Virus record (IMG/VR): IMGVR_UViG_3300025728_000008
Location: 1 to 64,000 of that record
Source: a virus
Direction: 5' to 3' (one strand)
Length of the DNA stretch: 64,000 bases
Made by a program: the position numbers and the translations under genes. Shown here in pieces: positions 18,806-50,933 of the stretch. The notes under the pieces were generated by a model. It searched no databases, was not told the origin of the DNA, and worked only from the letters and a program-made list of their open reading frames with translations. Every line of letters begins with the position of its first letter. The stretch's first letter is position 1.

Positions 18806-19816
18806 TTATTTTGTGTAAGTTTGACGGATGATATCTAATGTCAAGAATCCTTTTAGATTGTGGTATGACTTCATATTAAATCGGTCTGCAACCACTTTTA
18901 GTTCATCTAAAGTAAGTTCTTCATCATTCATTTGTGATAGTAATTCATTTGCATAATAAACCATACCACTACGTTGTATAAATTTTGCAGTCAAACTTTT
19001 AATGCTTAATGTTTCTTTAATTACATCTAATCTTCTATAAATAACAAATTTGTCAGCAGGTTTATTTATATTGCTTTCATCTTTAACATTTGTTATAGAA
19101 GCTCTAATGACATAATCATTATCAATTAAATTTGTATATCTACCTACGTGTTCATTTTCCTCCATTTGACCATTTTTCTTTTCATATGTCTTTTGGTCAA
19201 TAGCTTCTTGAAGTAGGTCTAATGTGCGCTCATCAACTTCTAGATAACGTTGTGTATACTTTAATGGAAATCCATTATCATCTTCTTTTAATGTGTTAGT
19301 TAAGTGTATTCTACCGTTTGCCCAATCAATGTCAGACTTCTTTAGGTTTCGAATTTCACTCATTTGTTTGCCCCCAACACCGATGAATGATAATCTTAGT
19401 ATAACTGAATCTTGTGCATTCACACATCTGTCTTCATAACGTGCAAGCTGTTTCTCTGTCATATACTGTTCCATATTAGTTAGATACTTTTCAAAGTCAG
19501 TTGGCTTTAAGTCCTTTAAAACGTTATTCTTTACATATCCATGTTCAACACACCAGTTAAGGTAACTAGAGATAATACGACCATATGTTTCAGCAGTGTT
19601 TCTCGTGTTAGCCTTAAATCCGTATAATACTGTTTCCATTTCTTTTAATGAGAAGAAACGAATTTCTTTGTTTAATGATTCCTCGTGTGGTTTAGCATAC
19701 TCGAATATACGTTTATAACTTTTGGCAGTTGACTCGGCAATCTCACCTAAAAACTTCTTCTTTAGATTATCCTTATCAAATAAAGAATTATCATTTATGT
19801 TTGTCATGGCTGTCAT
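18806..19816 (-). CDS. tyrosine-recombinase-fold protein, probably non-catalytic; YopR/MrpR-like master repressor
   Basis: SAM-like N-terminus (STAKSYKRIF...GRIISSYLNWC); box I reads IGVGGKQMSEIRNL (no TGxR Arg) and box II reads KFIQRSG (no HxxRH); start set by SD GGAG. Confidence 0.7.
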   Translation of the reverse strand: MTAMTNINDNSLFDKDNLKKKFLGEIAESTAKSYKRIFEYAKPHEESLNKEIRFFSLKEMETVLYGFKANTRNTAETYGRIISSYLNWCVEHGYVKNNVLKDLKPTDFEKYLTNMEQYMTEKQLARYEDRCVNAQDSVILRLSFIGVGGKQMSEIRNLKKSDIDWANGRIHLTNTLKEDDNGFPLKYTQRYLEVDERTLDLLQEAIDQKTYEKKNGQMEENEHVGRYTNLIDNDYVIRASITNVKDESNINKPADKFVIYRRLDVIKETLSIKSLTAKFIQRSGMVYYANELLSQMNDEELTLDELKVVADRFNMKSYHNLKGFLTLDIIRQTYTK

Positions 19817-19985
19817 AGTGACCACTCCTAACTCTTGATTTTAGTCTTATTATATCCCCTTTTTCTAAACATATACCCTCTTTGTTACACATTTTTATCT
19901 TAACATTGATGTCGAATCATGTCAAAAAATTTAAGGTGGCAAAAGTTGCCTTTATAGAGGATATTTATTGTATGTTCATTTCTGG

Positions 19986-20041
19986 ATAAAAGTGCAGTTT
20001 TATCAAGATATTAAGAGTGTCATTTTATCCTTTATTGACGG
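19986..20041. repeat. composite site upstream of the YopR-like gene
   Basis: ATAAAA-GTGCAG-TTTTAT at 19986-20003, 24 bp, then TCCTTTATTGACGG at 20028-20041. Confidence 0.7.
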
Positions 20042-23138: not shown

Positions 23139-24751
23139 GACTTCCCTCCTAAACGGTCAACCATTTCTGGATACTTCTTCATTAAACGTCTAAGTTCATT
23201 TTTTTCATGGTCTTGTTCTAGCTTCTTATAATAAGCACTTCTTTCTGCTTCTTCTTTTTCTTTTTCTGCTATTCTTTTGTTTAAGTCTTGAATTTTTGCA
23301 TCATCATAGAAATACTCAATTGGAATTTTTATAGTGTCATCACAAGCATCTCTAATTGTAATGTGACTATCATCTACACTCCACAAATAGTCTCCAGAAA
23401 TAAAATCATATTTGTGTTTATAGAGTTTGTTTAATTTTCTTGAAATATCTTCTGCTAATTCCATAAAGTCTTCAAAATTATCAATTAACCATTGTATTTC
23501 TTCTCTTGTAAACTGTTTTCTCATATAATCACAACCCCTTATTTATAATTGTCATTCTATCAGCTAAAAACTTTAATTGCACATCAATTGCACCGTCAAG
23601 AAAATCAACACAATCTCTTCTCCATCCTTGCCGTTTCTTTCTAACTTGATAGCTTAAATACTTCTCTACAAATTTATAATTATCCTTTTGCATCTTGTCA
23701 GAGAAATCAATTGTTTGTTTATAGATTCCTAGTAAGTGGCTAATCATATCCATTCAATCACCCTCCTATGCTTTTGAATCATAGAATAATGACCCATAAG
23801 AATATCGTTTAACGTTGTTTGGGTCTTCAAAATATTCTTTTGGATTTTCAAACTCTTCAATACGTTTACGACTTCTCATATAGATAGTTGCGTTCCTCGT
23901 GAATAATTTAGATTTAAGCATATAATTCCATCCTCGCCCTAACTCAAATCTAACTATAGGAATCCAATAACCTTCTTCACTCTTAATTACTAATGATGTT
24001 CCATTTTTAGATAATCGTCCAAAGTATGCACGACCTTCATAAAATGTTGCTTTACGCCTAAACATATCTTCATTTGCTGTAAATACATATGCTTCAATCA
24101 TTATCTCAACCCCTTAACTGTTCCAATTTTAACTGTCTTTTCAACTTTGACAACTCCTACTGGAAGTGAAGATACCCAATAATCAAACTTTCCTGTATTG
24201 TTTTTCATATGGTTACCTTCTGCTACAGCAATATCATATGTATCATACATATCAGCATCATCTACTGATTCAGTAGTAAATACATCAATTTCTCTATCAC
24301 CAGTTTGTACTGTATGTATATAATTACCATTTTCCGCAACAATAGCATATCCTTCAATTAAGATAACATCGCTCATTAAACCACCTCACAAGTACTTATT
24401 TTAGTTAATTCATAACCTATTAACATTGGATGTGCTTCGAAATATGCAATTAATGTTTCATCATTCTCAAAGTATAACATTCTCCCTTGGTCTGGAGATA
24501 TATCTCCTGCTGTATGTAAAGGTACTAATCTATAAAACCCTTCTCCTTCTATAATTTGCATAATATCATCCTCCTTAGTAATAAGTATATCATTATGTTT
24601 AGTGTTTGTCAACGGTTTTTTATGAGTTTAATATTTCTCGTATCTCTCCTGCACAAACTGATTCATCATCCCACATACCACTAATCAATTCTTCAATCTT
24701 TTTCAATTTTTCTTCTGCTGTCATATTATCATCCTCCATAAAAGGGAAATT

Positions 24752-24910
24752 TTATACATCATAAAAAGTTATGTTTGCAACATTCAATCCTAATTCAGCT
24801 ATCTTATGTGCATTAATCATATCTTCTAATGTATATTTGTGGCGTAAATTAGGATTCTTATCTCCATCGCAAATATTTATTATTGTCATAACAAATGTCA
24901 ATGTTGTCAC
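24752..24910 (-). CDS. 52 aa cassette-like ORF not in the ORF track
   Basis: GTG start after GGTGGTG SD; TAA inside site 24738-24755. Confidence 0.55.
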   Translation of the reverse strand: MTTLTFVMTIINICDGDKNPNLRHKYTLEDMINAHKIAELGLNVANITFYDV

Positions 24911-24945
24911 TCTATCACCACCACCTTTATAAAAGTAAGATTTTA

Positions 24946-25110
24946 TTAGATTTCTTCAACTTGTGTTACTTCTACTTCCCCACTATCAATTTCATATTCT
25001 CCTTCAAAATCTCCATTCTCAACCATTTTCTCTGCATCATCTGGAGACTCGGCTTTCACTGTGACTTCCTTATAAATTACCTCTTTATAACTTACTGTAA
25101 ATTTTCTCAT
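24946..25110 (-). CDS. 54 aa cassette-like ORF not in the ORF track
   Basis: MRKFTVSYKEVIYKEVTVKAESPDDAE...; SD GAAGGAGG; stop at site 24929-24946. Confidence 0.65.
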   Translation of the reverse strand: MRKFTVSYKEVIYKEVTVKAESPDDAEKMVENGDFEGEYEIDSGEVEVTQVEEI

Positions 25111-32750: not shown

Positions 32751-33501
32751 GCGAAATTTTAATAATCTTCATCTTCTTCATAATCTTTTTTGTATTCAAC
32801 CACTTCACGGATTGCAAGTGGAATGTCATAGTAGTTCATCCATTTAAGAGCATTGTGAAATTCTTCTTCTGTATCATATGTTCTTGTTTCAACATACTCT
32901 TTCACACCGTGGTCATTACCTACTCGCACCTTAATTTCCCAATACTTTGATTCAACAATTAATTTTATCATAAAATCCCTCCTATTTATCTTCTGGGTCA
33001 TATTCTAATTCAATTTTAACTTTGACACCATCACCTAAATACTTTCCACCTGCTTCTGCAACGCTCCAGAATGCATCATATAGCTCCACAATCAAATTTT
33101 CAAGGTGTTTCTCTGTTGATTTAATTGGCGTAAACTGACCATCGTGAGACATCTCTGAAAGCATCTTATTATACTTATCACAACTTTTCTGGTCTTGCAT
33201 CGGAATATTGAAATTTAAAGTCTTTTTCCATTCCATATTAATTCCACCCTCCAGATTGTTTTTTCTTCATATCTAACAATTCTGAATCATAATTGATTAC
33301 ATATGTAAGTGCATCAATCTGTATATTCAATGTATTAATCAGATTCATTACACGAGAATAGTCTTTTTTCTCTTCATCAGACAGTTTAGACCAGTCTGCA
33401 ATACCGAAACCATTTTTTATTCCTCTTGCATCTTCTAATTGACCTTTTAATTCTTCACGCTTTTTTAATACTGTTTCTAATGATTTCATAGACATCTCTC
33501 C

Positions 33502-33783
33502 TTATTGTTTATCATAATTTTTTACTTCAAGATATGTAGTGTAAAAGTCATTTGTTTGATATTCTACCTTATATATTGCACCTTTTTCTAGTGGTTTTGG
33601 TTCATCATCCCAATACAGACTAACAACATTACCATTTTTATCTTCAAATATAGCTACTTGTTTTTCATATTTAGCTTTAACAACTGTATTTCCCACAAAC
33701 TTCAATTCTTTTTGTTCGAACGTTTGCCCACCGCCACACCCAACCAAGAGGACTAGAAACAATACTGTAATAAGTTTTTTCAT
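33502..33783 (-). CDS. lipoprotein
   Basis: lipobox LVGC. Confidence 0.7.
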   Translation of the reverse strand: MKKLITVLFLVLLVGCGGGQTFEQKELKFVGNTVVKAKYEKQVAIFEDKNGNVVSLYWDDEPKPLEKGAIYKVEYQTNDFYTTYLEVKNYDKQ

Positions 33784-33814
33784 TATACCACTCCTTTATA
33801 AAATTGAGTTTTTA

Positions 33815-33973
33815 TTAAAATAATCCACCATTACTACCTTGACCTCCATCATCCTTACCTGTACCACTGTCATCTCCACCTTTGGAGAAACATAACCAAG
33901 TTAGGATGATGAGAAATATTCCAAGTATTGTATAAATGATACCTCCTAATATTAAACCCCATATTGGATACAT
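33815..33973 (-). CDS. 52 aa membrane peptide, cassette-like, not in the ORF track
   Basis: MYPIWGLILGGIIYTILGIFLIILTWLCF plus Gly/Asp tail; SD GAGGTG. Confidence 0.6.
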   Translation of the reverse strand: MYPIWGLILGGIIYTILGIFLIILTWLCFSKGGDDSGTGKDDGGQGSNGGLF

Positions 33974-33998
33974 AATATCACCTCATAAAAGTAAACTT

Positions 33999-34157
33999 TT
34001 ATTCACCAAATTCTTTTCTATTAACATATAGAATATTATCACAAAGTTCATCAAAACATTTAATGCTACAAATACTTCCATACGCACTTCCAACAATATC
34101 CTCATCTTTTTCAGCAACTATTGTTCTTTCACATACAGTACAAGTTCCTTTTACCAT
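33999..34157 (-). CDS. 52 aa Cys-rich (Zn-binding) cassette-like ORF, not in the ORF track
   Basis: MVKGTCTVCER...ICSIKCF; SD AAGGAGG. Confidence 0.6.
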   Translation of the reverse strand: MVKGTCTVCERTIVAEKDEDIVGSAYGSICSIKCFDELCDNILYVNRKEFGE

Positions 34158-34189
34158 ATAAATTCCTCCTTGTTAAAAGTAAAATTTTA

Positions 34190-34393
34190 TCAATCTTCAT
34201 AGATAGAAACAACTACCTTTACCCTTTTCCCATTGTATTCTTCTAACAAATCCCCTAAATCTGCACCGTCATCTCCTATTATTTCGTGCCAGATATATCC
34301 ATAATGTTCATTGTCTCTGACAGTACCAACCATGACAACTTGTTCTGTTCCAGATGAATCCTTACCTATATGATAGCTCTTTTTATTTTTCAT
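34190..34393 (-). CDS. small hypothetical protein, cassette-like
   Basis: flanked by sites 34173 and 34410. Confidence 0.7.
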   Translation of the reverse strand: MKNKKSYHIGKDSSGTEQVVMVGTVRDNEHYGYIWHEIIGDDGADLGDLLEEYNGKRVKVVVSIYED

Positions 34394-36499
34394 ACAATCA
34401 TCTCCCTTGTTAAAATTAAGATTTTATTTACCAAACACCTAACAAAACACATACCCATATTAAACATGCACAAGACAATATATAACAGACAACACTTATA
34501 ATATTTCTCATTAAAACACCCTCTTTCCAATTGCTTTCTCTATGTCTTTTCTCCATTCGTTGTAAAGTTTTGTGGCATATTTATCTAAACCTAATTCTTG
34601 TATAACTTCTTTCACGTGAATTTTTAATTTGTCATAAGTTTCCTCATCGTAATCAATCTCAATCTCAAAACTTTTAACTAAGTCTTCTTTGCTTCCTGTC
34701 TCGGAATAATCAAAATCTATATCATCAATATCTTGATTGATTGAAAAGACATGAAACAATCCTTTTTCTGTTGTCAAGTATCCACACAAACCACCAAAAG
34801 CAGGAGGTGAAAATCCTCTTTCTTCCCATTTTCTCATAAGCATCTCTCCTTTGTATAAGTTAATTATACTACATTATGATTCTTTTGTCAAGCGAAAATT
34901 TTTAGACTCCGTATTTTACTAAACTACGAATTTCATCTACTGCTTTTGGATGTGCTTCTTCACATTGTTCTAATTCTTGTAAAACCTCTTTTGGAGAATA
35001 TCCTAATGAAATAGCTTCATTGAATGCATCTATTGTTTCTTGATACGTCATAGAATCATCCCATTAATCTTGCTTAATCGTTCTTCTAATGTCTCTAGGG
35101 CTTCTTTAACTCTATCATTACGCACTTTATGTGAAGCATGTTCAATATCTCCTTCAAACTCTGTATAAGCTCTAAGCTTGTAATTCATTCGTTGAATCAT
35201 TTTAAAAAGCACCATCACATCATTACCACTACGCTCATAAGTGTTGATAATGTTGAATAGCATAGCGTTATTTTCTTTACTTGCTTGCATTTTCATTTCC
35301 TGTACCTTTTTAGCAGTTTCGGATTCTGTTTGCCATTTGTCTTGTTCATACATACTCATTGAATCACCCCTATTTTACGTTTTTAAAAACTCCTTGCTCT
35401 TTCACATAATAATTATAAGTTGGTGCATATTTATCTACATAAGCCTGTGCATCATGACCATTATCAAACGATGTAATGTATGTAGAATCATTATCATCAT
35501 AATAAGCATCAAGCTTTTCAAATATACTGTAAATTGTTGCGACTCTAATAGTTTTCATTAAACCGCCCCTTTCACATATCGTCTAACGTATCTATAAACA
35601 TTATCACGTACTTCTGTATCATCCCAATCCCACTTCATAGCATCGTGATAGTATAATTCTTTAACGTTGATACCAATTTTAATTATTTCATCGTCACTTG
35701 GATTTTGACCTGTAATATCCTTATAACACATTACAATGATATCATTCATCGGCTTATCTTCTTCATTTTCTAAAGTATTCATGTATGCCAAAACCCAATC
35801 TAGCATATCGACTCTATCCATTTCTAATTCTTTTTCTAACTGTGTTCGAGTAGATTTAAGTTGTTCTTTTAATGTTTTCCATTTACCCATAACATCATCT
35901 CCTTATCTTAATTACATTTTATCACACTTCAAATCTTGTGTCAAGCGAATTATTTAATTACTTTTTCAAGTTTCTCAATAAAATAATTCAATGTATTCGA
36001 AACAGGGAAATCATAGGCTTCAAATGCTTTGTCTTTCTCTTCCTTCATTTCTGCTAAAATCTCCAGAATGCTTTCTGTGCTGTTTGGAGATAAGATAGAC
36101 CCTTTTGTATCATCAATCAACTCTCCAGAATCTATAACCTTATCTATCTCACTTCTCATGGAAAGTGCAGTGCTCTTGTATTTAACAAACACACTGTCAA
36201 TATCATTTTCATACTCATCATAGAATGCTAAAGATAAACCACTACCAATACCAGACCCACTTAACCCAATACGTACAGATGCACCTTTTTGTTTTATAAA
36301 CATTGGTGATAATTCATCATGAAATTTTTTACCCATTAGACATCTCTCCTTTTAATTTATTATTATATTCCTCTTGCATTTTTTTATCTTTCTTGTCATT
36401 ACCTAGTTCTCTACATGACCAACAATAAACTTCTGTTTCTTTTTGATTATACCAATCATGACACCATTTACATTTACACATTGCCATAAGCATTCCTCC

Positions 36500-36741
36500 A
36501 TAAAATCAGACTTTTATACAGATTTTTTAGCACCTCTAGGTAGTTTGCCAACTGTAAATGGCTTATTTAAATCTCTAGAGCATCTAAGCTCACCATTAAG
36601 ATTAACAAAGTAATAAGAGCCATCCATAATCACTTTCCGTTGGACTTGATGTATTTCTCCAAGATAATCAATTAATATAGTTTTCAATGTAGTTTCCATA
36701 GTTTTCATAGCATTACCTCCTTGATAATATGAGAATTTTAT
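36500..36741. repeat. pair of palindromic sites bracketing ORF 36514..36708
   Basis: ATAAAA-TCAGAC-TTTTAT and ATAATA-TGAGAA-TTTTAT. Confidence 0.75.
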
Positions 36742-38481: not shown

Positions 38482-38978
38482 ATAAATCTAAAATTTTATC
38501 AATAACCAAACAATTCTCTACTAACCTCTTTAAACCCTTCTTTTTCAAGATGGCTTTTATAAATAGTCCATTCATTGCTAATGATTCTCTTGTTTGCATT
38601 GTAATGGCTACAAGTTAGACTATTACCATTATAACCAACATGTAATACGATATATGCTGTTGTATATCTTTCTGTATCTTGAGACAATACAAAGGTTTGA
38701 CCTTCTTTCAAAGTCTCATTCTTGAATTTGTTTACAACATCTAATAATATCATAACATCACCCTTTCATAAAACAATCCTTTTATCATTCTTTATATTCA
38801 AATATTGTCATAGTAAGTACGTTTAATTTACTAAAATCAACTTTCTCCAATAGTTTAACCATTGCTTTCTGTTTATCTTTAGCTTCAACATACTCAATAT
38901 CATATCCACCATTAACAGTTGCAAAAACAAATTTATAAGTATTCATAATATCTCCCCTTTATAAAAGATTTCTTTTAT
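38482..38978. repeat. array of 3 palindromic sites (38482, 38768, 38961)
   Basis: spacers CTAAAA, CAATCC, GATTTC; one ORF per unit. Confidence 0.8.
38785..38946 (-). CDS. 53 aa cassette-like ORF not in the ORF track
   Basis: MNTYKFVFATVNGGYDIEYVEAKDKQKAM...; SD AAGGGGAG; TGA overlaps site 38768-38785. Confidence 0.65.
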   Translation of the reverse strand: MNTYKFVFATVNGGYDIEYVEAKDKQKAMVKLLEKVDFSKLNVLTMTIFEYKE

Positions 38979-41548: not shown

Positions 41549-41605
41549 ATAAAATTGTGATTTTATACAAATTTCTTAGGTGGCTAAAACCCCGTCTATT
41601 AACGG
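41549..41605. repeat. composite site
   Basis: ATAAAA-TTGTGA-TTTTAT at 41549-41566, 25 bp, then CCGTCTATTAACGG at 41592-41605. Confidence 0.75.
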
Positions 41606-50877: not shown

Positions 50878-50933
50878 ATAAAATACGAATTTTATCAAGA
50901 AAAACAGGTGCAAAATGTTCCGTCTATTGACGG
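50878..50933. repeat. composite site
   Basis: ATAAAA-TACGAA-TTTTAT at 50878-50895, 24 bp, then CCGTCTATTGACGG at 50920-50933. Confidence 0.8.

Follow-up and report, generated by a model that had tools for sequence, protein, structure and literature searches.

The lambdoid phages carry short conserved stretches at gene boundaries, the linker or boundary sequences of the modular theory of Susskind and Botstein, at which mosaic joints are clustered. In T4-type phages a repeated short intergenic motif, the promoter-early stem-loop (PeSL) cassette, lies amid small orphan genes and bounds indels and replacements between related phages, and a role as the driver of modular shuffling has been suggested for it (Arbiol et al. 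2010, PMC2839356; Comeau et al. 2014, PMC4122927). A comparable arrangement was found for the element described here, an 18-bp palindrome in a 64,000-nucleotide stretch of viral DNA (positions 1 to 64,000 of IMG/VR record IMGVR_UViG_3300025728_000008; hereafter the window). The window covers the opening 64 kb of a Bacillus phage genome of 159 kb, and the relatives of this phage are C30-3, pW2, Kirov, Thrax and Tsamsa, the Tyrovirus group, which was named after its three conserved tyrosine recombinases (PMC9703825). The palindrome is a conserved gene-boundary element at which homology between related phages breaks off, and the apparently promoterless mini-genes between neighboring palindromes behave as exchangeable alleles of a slot.

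The motif reads ATAAAA-N6-TTTTAT/A, with a core of TAAAA-N6-TTTTA that is often lengthened to GATAAAA-N6-TTTTATC. The window has 20 copies of it, of which 12 are perfect and 8 contain one mismatch; over the whole 159-kb genome the corresponding figures are 18 and 8. For the 17-base core ATAAAA-N6-TTTTA, 28 strand matches were counted in the window, where 0.85 ± 1.1 were expected from 100 dinucleotide shuffles, none of which reached 28; the claim of an earlier note on this stretch, made from the letters alone, that one real site punctuates the locus was thereby borne out. The arms never changed to G or C, and the spacer was free in sequence and fixed at 6 bp in length. A stop codon was situated in or against the left arm, either as a TAA inside the arm or as a TGA or TAA ending at base 1. 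In the complete genome 15 of 26 sites abutted the stop of an open reading frame (ORF), and in 14 of these 15 the next start followed 6–17 nt on, mostly 13–17 nt.

The clearest array consists of four sites (sites 1 to 4, Table 1), and the genes surrounding it are all on the minus strand. The sites follow one another with periods of 187, 188 and 237 bp, and these periods, the enclosed minus-strand ORFs and the 27-aa ORF at the last site were all confirmed as the earlier note had described them. The array is not a tandem repeat; the similar sizes of the ORFs alone explain the near-equal periods, and the cargo genes are, as had been claimed, mutually unrelated. Each array ORF has its own Shine-Dalgarno (SD) sequence, which is of the GGAG type and begins 0–4 nt past the site, and the next start follows the end of a site by about 15 nt. 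The stop codon of the Cys-rich 52-aa ORF is the TAA within the left arm of site 2, and the TGA stop of the 67-aa ORF overlaps base 1 of site 3.

Ten loci were compared: the window, C30-3, pW2, Thrax2, Tsamsa and five IMG/VR contigs (L013, L019, L022, L037 and L047). The spacers, here called addresses, occurred in one order in all of them (TCACAA ... GAAATC, GGATTG, TTTTAG, (TAAGAG), TTCTCA, GTCTGA, TCTTAA, TTTTAC, GTTTAC, ACTCAA, (ACTGAA) ... TCTTAC, TTTCCC), with very different site-to-site distances. ACTCAA of site 1, for instance, was found at the syntenic place in all nine other loci. The DNA between the addresses varied strongly. Three array slots held 7 contents in 7 phages, 6 in 7 and 7 in 9, and genes of 40–110 aa with sites on both sides were unique, i.e., without a blastp match at 1e-4 among the loci compared, in 71% of cases, as opposed to 34% for site-less genes (Fisher p = 2e-4). 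The earlier note had proposed to look among relatives for polymorphism of order and content. The content proved strongly polymorphic, so that the invariance which the note had named as refuting its reading was not seen; the order of the sites was conserved. Families F27, F35, F19, F17, F58 and F74 occupied different slots in different phages.

The breaks of homology were followed at base level in the comparison with C30-3, which is ∼86–90% identical to the window where the two can be aligned. This homology reached site 1 and stopped at its upstream edge. Beyond site 1 only the sites aligned, as islands of 27–44 bp, and the DNA between them was unrelated and of different length; at site 3 the island measured 27 bp, with unrelated DNA on both sides. 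Identity with C30-3 was gone within 0–10 nt of the site edge on one or both sides. Base-level alignments showed identical spacers at all 10 orthologous sites; 8 of the 10 sites were 100% identical, and the other two had one arm mismatch. In the comparison of the window with six relatives, 90 of 276 ends of blastn high-scoring segment pairs (HSPs) fell within 25 nt of 11 sites, an area that occupies 5.3% of the sequence, and on average each site had 8.2 HSP ends, compared with 3.0 for each gene boundary that lacks a site. The window and L047 shared nine syntenic addresses, with eight spacers identical and one off by one base, at an identity of 59% at four-fold degenerate sites; the spacers are thus conserved beyond neutral expectation. 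Several adjacent addresses were one base apart (TTTTAC/GTTTAC/ATTTAC and ACTCAA/ACTGAA), as would be expected if an insertion duplicates a site.

A similar pattern was obtained for the SPbeta-like phages. Between SPbeta and phi3T, 13 of 78 HSP ends lay within 25 nt of a site, where 1.9% were expected (p = 3e-9). A scan for the SPbeta address AGACTG returned 52 viral contigs, mostly proviruses of 120–140 kb, and ∼50 SPbeta-like proviruses had the same address order with nearly every distance different. AGACTG was joined to ∼24 unrelated upstream and 19 unrelated downstream sequences, and a recurring flank nearly always retained its spacer (left, 43 of 48 cases; right, 36 of 37), which indicates that exchange occurs overwhelmingly between sites of the same address. 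At 87598 SPbeta and phi3T share yoqG and the left arm, after which phi3T has the spacer of the next site of SPbeta; the yoqH-yoqI unit is therefore an indel with its joint at the arm/spacer border.

A 3,213-bp block from yopW to yoqD was 100% identical between SPbeta (NC_001884, 83687–86899) and phi3T (PP526178, 75552–78764). Its first base is base 1 of the site at 83687, its other end falls within the site at 86885, and the DNA outside is unrelated; elsewhere nearby the two phages are 70–99% identical or unrelated. From its sequence the block looks like a very recent exchange. A laboratory phi3T-SPbeta hybrid (PP526179) was also considered. Its crossover lies in a 13-kb stretch in which the parents are 99.9% identical and is uninformative with respect to the sites.

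The occurrence of the motif in other genomes was assessed with the reversed pattern as control. Perfect 18-bp sites numbered 18 in the phage's own genome, 19 in C30-3, 19 in pW2, 16 in Thrax2 and 32 in an SPbeta-like provirus, each against 0 for the control, and the Tsamsa locus likewise has the sites. SPbeta had 38 sites (control 4) when up to one mismatch was allowed, and the 16-base core was found 28 times in Mammaliicoccus phage phi36 (control 1) and 16 times in Lactobacillus phage Nyseid (control 2). In SPbeta the sites were situated among small early genes, between the stop codon of one and the SD of the next, at a variable distance from that SD, and 4 of 6 sites inspected in Nyseid had the stop-site-SD layout. 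The motif was weakly enriched in Staphylococcus 6ec, and not enriched in Lactococcus phiL47 (7 against 3 for the control) and Enterococcus VPE25. Across 151 genomes of the class Bacilli it was as frequent as the reversed control (∼1 per Mb), and bacterial-genome loci reached via a NadR-like protein belonged to other lineages and were without the motif. The lack of enrichment in host genomes indicates that the element is phage-specific and not part of a host regulon. A single 18-mer was matched by 39 viral contigs, mostly by chance in A/T-rich DNA, and only contigs with several sites were used. Five IMG/VR contigs of 42–126 kb from one metagenome (L016, L031, L048, L023 and L044) represent a different phage group; in these contigs three perfect sites are clustered locally, one with an SD directly behind it, and there is no genome-wide enrichment. 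The GenBank record of SPbeta labels a few of the palindromes as stem-loops, and a description of the element was not found in the literature searched, a search that did not include the 1999 SPbeta genome paper.

The fixed order of the sites, the changing genes between them and the breaks of homology at their edges suggest that the sites are fixed addresses where collinear phage genomes cross over, which is the reading that we favor on balance. Single crossovers at shared addresses suffice to reassort the slots, so that neither a circle nor a double crossover has to be assumed. With respect to what acts on the sites, we are fairly confident that a dimeric phage protein with sequence specificity recognizes them in the form of duplex DNA, as judged from the invariant arms, the free spacer of fixed length, the unstable RNA hairpin and the lack of a matching RNA family. 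Phages that infect three host genera and probably do not swap DNA have the same arms, a constancy that a plain homology anchor would not call for.

This dimeric protein may be a recombinase that requires matching spacers, a step that we take only tentatively. Inverted arms around a 6-bp center fit the core site of tyrosine recombinases, with its 6–8 bp overlap geometry, and the recombinase is further suggested by the address-specific exchange, by the spacer conservation beyond neutral expectation, by the 18–27 bp of identity, which is very short for homologous recombination, and by the adjacent addresses one base apart. The candidate would be a YomM/gp50-type tyrosine recombinase that is expressed during lytic growth and recombines only sites with the same overlap. 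Each phage would then carry 20–40 heterospecific sites with identical arms and a unique 6-bp overlap each, and co-infecting or resident relatives could reassort their accessory genes slot by slot without deleting genes of their own. That the whole constitutes a natural recombinase-mediated cassette exchange in large temperate siphoviruses (Tyroviruses, SPbeta-like, phi36 and Nyseid-like phages) seems to us somewhat unlikely as a complete account.

The genome has three genes with a tyrosine-recombinase fold. Genes of the Phage_integrase family were found only at genome positions 73789–74847 and 99331–100323, neither of which adjoins the array, and the MrpR-like gene does not adjoin it either. 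The YopP/gp19-like protein adjoins a replication-relaxation gene and has Lys in place of the Arg of box II; the YomM/gp50-like protein is encoded directly before the tape-measure gene in the late operon and has all catalytic residues. SPbeta has all three recombinases in common with this phage, in addition to tail, replication and recombination genes, and the YomM/gp50 type was the only tyrosine recombinase found in every motif-bearing group. In five more phages the presence of tyrosine recombinases or MrpR gave no clean correlation with motif enrichment. The assignment of the site to the YomM/gp50-type enzyme is weak. An attP for gp50 was considered and not adopted, as a different, G/C-containing inverted repeat lies downstream of the YomM-like gene. 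Many large siphoviruses also have homologues of YomM/gp50 in their structural or lysis modules, among them the Lactococcus 949 group (55% identity) and Staphylococcus 6ec-like, Enterococcus VPE25-like and Lactobacillus plantarum phages, and this distribution points to a role of the enzyme outside integration.

Several observations weigh against the crossover reading and the recombinase proposed for it. Genes were also replaced at boundaries without a site, and a site is thus not required for mosaicism. Selection against chimeric proteins could partly explain why junctions lie exactly at gene ends, and the p-values given above are optimistic, the compared phages being related and not independent samples. 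In one-mismatch variants the mismatch, read on the sense strand, lay preferentially in the downstream arm, a hint of some strand-specific constraint for which a symmetric dimer on DNA offers no explanation. The site-binding protein itself is putative. The closest outside gp50 homologue found (55% identity) belongs to phiL47, in which the motif was not enriched, and for gp50 another site, of 11-6-11 architecture, has been put forward (PMC9703825).

An alternative to dedicated crossover sites is recombination by short homology at a site that is retained for another reason, and that reason might be regulatory. The palindrome would then be an operator or roadblock for a dimeric phage regulator that controls or insulates early operons, and the mosaic joints would be a by-product, the sole conserved stretch attracting rare homologous recombination. 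The half-site symmetry, the 6-bp spacer and the ∼11 bp between half-site centers are typical of helix-turn-helix dimers. The conservation of the arms across Bacillus, Mammaliicoccus and Lactobacillus phages, which are unlikely to recombine, argues for a trans-acting factor. Genes for an annealing protein and for a RecJ-like exonuclease are present in these phages, and the site at genome position 98228 overlaps a promoter-like TTGAAA-18-TATAAT ahead of the operon of the YomM-like gene. However, most sites lie inside operons and away from promoters, and the master repressor MrpR binds another motif. An operator role also leaves the constancy of the address-specific spacers unexplained at a four-fold-site identity of 0.59, and joints formed over 18–27 bp of identity, very short for homologous recombination, would have had to bring ∼20 partners to each side of one address. 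We consider a regulatory site a less likely, though quite conceivable, explanation.

The palindrome could also act in the mRNA, as a protein-bound hairpin, as a cleavage site that leaves a strong SD or as a translational operator, and recombination would again be incidental. Hairpins at which RNA is processed between cistrons are known from T7 and from the early RNA of SP82. The site always lies in transcribed intercistronic space, where it starts in the stop codon and, in this phage, ends 0–4 nt before the SD, and the variants with one mismatch show a preference for the 3' arm on the sense strand. The palindrome is, however, not a stable RNA hairpin. The predicted hairpins (−2.5 to −6.2 kcal/mol; z-scores −1.1 to +0.5) were no more stable than shuffles and were missing from the best fold in 2 of 6 cases. 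The stem had no compensatory changes in the sites of the own genome, its relatives and SPbeta, which together with a free loop is the reverse of most RNA-protein sites, and no Rfam family was matched at E ≤ 0.1. The SD distance varies in SPbeta, some sites are found at operon ends ahead of a terminator with no gene downstream, and host genes do not use the element. A signal in the RNA seems improbable.

Integron- or pdif-like mobile cassettes, in which a mini-gene with its own site is excised as a circle and reinserted by a site-specific recombinase, are brought to mind by the single-gene units, each with an SD but apparently no promoter of its own, downstream of one predicted promoter, by the families that change slots, by neighboring spacers that differ as if an insertion had duplicated a site, by the yoqH-yoqI indel with its junction at the left-arm/spacer border and by the three tyrosine-recombinase-fold genes, yet the spacer is tied to position and not to cargo, with many partners per address, which excludes an integron-type array, the order of the sites is conserved, the 18-bp site has no attC features, no integrase or attI adjoins the array, and the arms are unlike the B. 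subtilis dif sequence, so that the cassette-array analogy of the earlier note does not hold and such cassettes are highly implausible.

Table 1. Sites, genes and promoter in the window (positions of the window; motif and spacer of sites 1 to 4 as read on the minus, i.e., sense, strand)
Feature	Position	Strand	Motif or spacer	Remarks
Site 1	33798-33815		ATAAAA-N6-TTTTAT, spacer ACTCAA	
Site 2	33985-34002		ATAAAA-N6-TTTTAT, spacer GTTTAC	
Site 3	34173-34190		ATAAAA-N6-TTTTAA, spacer TTTTAC	
Site 4	34410-34427		ATAAAA-N6-TTTTAA, spacer TCTTAA	abuts stop of 27-aa ORF
Cargo of slot GTTTAC->ACTCAA	33815-33973	minus		52 aa, hydrophobic N-terminus, Gly/Asp-rich tail
Cargo of slot TTTTAC->GTTTAC	33999-34157	minus		52 aa, five Cys, local family F27
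Cargo of slot TCTTAA->TTTTAC	34190-34393	minus		67-aa ORF
27-aa ORF	34428-34511	minus		hydrophobic, Cys-rich
110-aa gene	34511-34843	minus		first after promoter; local family F26, common to pW2 and Tsamsa
Predicted promoter, sigmaA-type	34863-34891	minus	TTGACA-17-TATAAT	consensus match
93-aa lipoprotein-like gene	33502-33783	minus		downstream of site 1; family F28; other slot in pW2
Scaffold site	36500-36517		spacer GTCTGA	
Scaffold site	36724-36741		spacer TTCTCA	one right-arm mismatch
Scaffold site	38482-38499		spacer TTTTAG	
Scaffold site	38768-38785		spacer GGATTG	
Scaffold site	38961-38978		spacer GAAATC	
Scaffold site	41549-41566		spacer TCACAA	C30-3 homology ends just past site
Second-array site	24738-24755		spacer TTTCCC	
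Second-array site	24929-24946		spacer TCTTAC	
MrpR-like protein	18806-19825	minus		Pfam MrpR_N_CB and MrpR_C_cat

The array is preceded by the predicted sigmaA-type promoter of Table 1. It is the only 12/12 consensus match within 33300–35200, with none of that quality between the sites, which agrees with the earlier proposal that the nearest such promoter lies upstream of the mini-genes, and no terminator-like site was found in the array region. The ATG of the 27-aa ORF overlaps the stop of the 110-aa gene in a TAATG at 34509–34513. This is the sole array junction without a palindrome, and its sequence looks like classical translational coupling. No function could be assigned to the cargo genes from PHROGs or Pfam. 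The 52-aa peptide with the hydrophobic N-terminus had no relative among the other nine phage loci, and the 67-aa ORF was unique among the ten, with nothing but a weak PHROG match. In the Cys-rich 52-aa protein C6, C9, C30, C34 and C39 were invariant in an alignment with the homologues of L037 and L013, a CxxC...CxxxCxxxxC pattern thus being kept in two other phages, and the mini-protein is probably a small zinc-binding protein.

MrpR was examined as a possible binder of the palindrome. The MrpR/YopR-family protein encoded in the window has a catalytically dead recombinase fold. In SPbeta, MrpR bound ten prominent peaks in chromatin affinity purification sequencing (ChAP-seq; PMC10516654), and SPBRE, ACAAA-A-AAAAAATATGTAT, mapped in SPbeta at exactly the ten genes with these peaks. 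As SPBRE is a different motif and is absent from the genome of the present phage, the palindrome was rejected as an MrpR operator, and with the ChAP-seq peaks confined to those ten, MrpR is probably not located on the palindromes. One palindrome (19986–20003) lies ∼160 bp upstream of the MrpR-like gene, and the 11-mer TATTGACGGTA occurs ∼30 nt both from this site and from the site at 50878.

Two further copies were observed elsewhere in the genome. At 98228–98245 the spacer TTGAAA is the possible −35 box of the promoter-like sequence mentioned above; the site precedes an operon of a YomO-like gene, a 167-aa gene and the YomM/gp50-like tyrosine recombinase gene, and its spacer is kept in C30-3, pW2 and Thrax2. 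A perfect palindrome at 108575–108592 lies within the tape-measure gene, where it encodes NKISIL. The spacer of its Thrax2 counterpart is altered by synonymous changes, and the protein sequence, not a function of the site, is probably the reason for this copy.

SPbeta serves as a model among temperate phages, and two phages of B. anthracis, Tsamsa and Thrax, belong to the Tyroviruses. In phages of this kind, anti-defense and host-takeover functions are being discovered among the small early genes. The 18-bp mark predicts gene boundaries and flags the most rapidly exchanged genes, and its addresses form a coordinate system in which exchanged genes can be compared over dozens of genomes. It also makes directly testable, in a genetically tractable system, a long-standing question: whether dedicated sites produce the mosaicism of phages or whether chance and selection together do. 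If the sites were indeed heterospecific recombinase targets, they would represent a new kind of gene-exchange system, and the tyrosine recombinase whose presence in structural modules of many large siphoviruses is unexplained would gain a function.

The element differs from each of the systems that it resembles. PeSLs are ∼100 bp long and consist of a working sigma70 promoter and a terminator stem-loop, whereas the palindrome has 18 bp and neither consensus. PeSL exchange proceeds by ordinary homology between any two PeSLs; the palindrome has a position-specific spacer that is conserved between phages, and it overlaps the stop codon. Integron arrays resemble this locus with its unrelated, apparently promoterless single-gene units behind one predicted promoter, and share with it palindromic boundary sites with conserved ends and a variable center. 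In integrons, however, the attC site measures 57–141 bp, moves with its cassette and is served by an adjacent IntI at attI, while the 18-bp palindrome stays as the cargo changes, and no integron integrase or attI adjoins the array. The pdif/dif modules of Acinetobacter plasmids (PMC6449649, PMC13141974) are likewise delimited by many sites with inverted arms and a 6-bp center, and their accessory modules are shuffled. A pdif site is 28 bp long (11-6-11), resembles chromosomal dif and is presumed to be acted on by the host XerC/XerD, whereas the palindrome has A/T arms of 5–7 bp, is not found in host genomes and, within operons, occupies the interval from a stop codon to the SD. SPBRE, the MrpR/YopR operator (Kohm et al. 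2023, PMC10516654), belongs to the same phage lineage and is also repeated. It is not palindromic, and the palindromes are 3–4 times more numerous and are not among the ten prominent ChAP-seq peaks. Finally, the lambdoid linkers are heterogeneous and have no common motif, whereas here one palindrome marks 20–40 boundaries per genome in several phage families.

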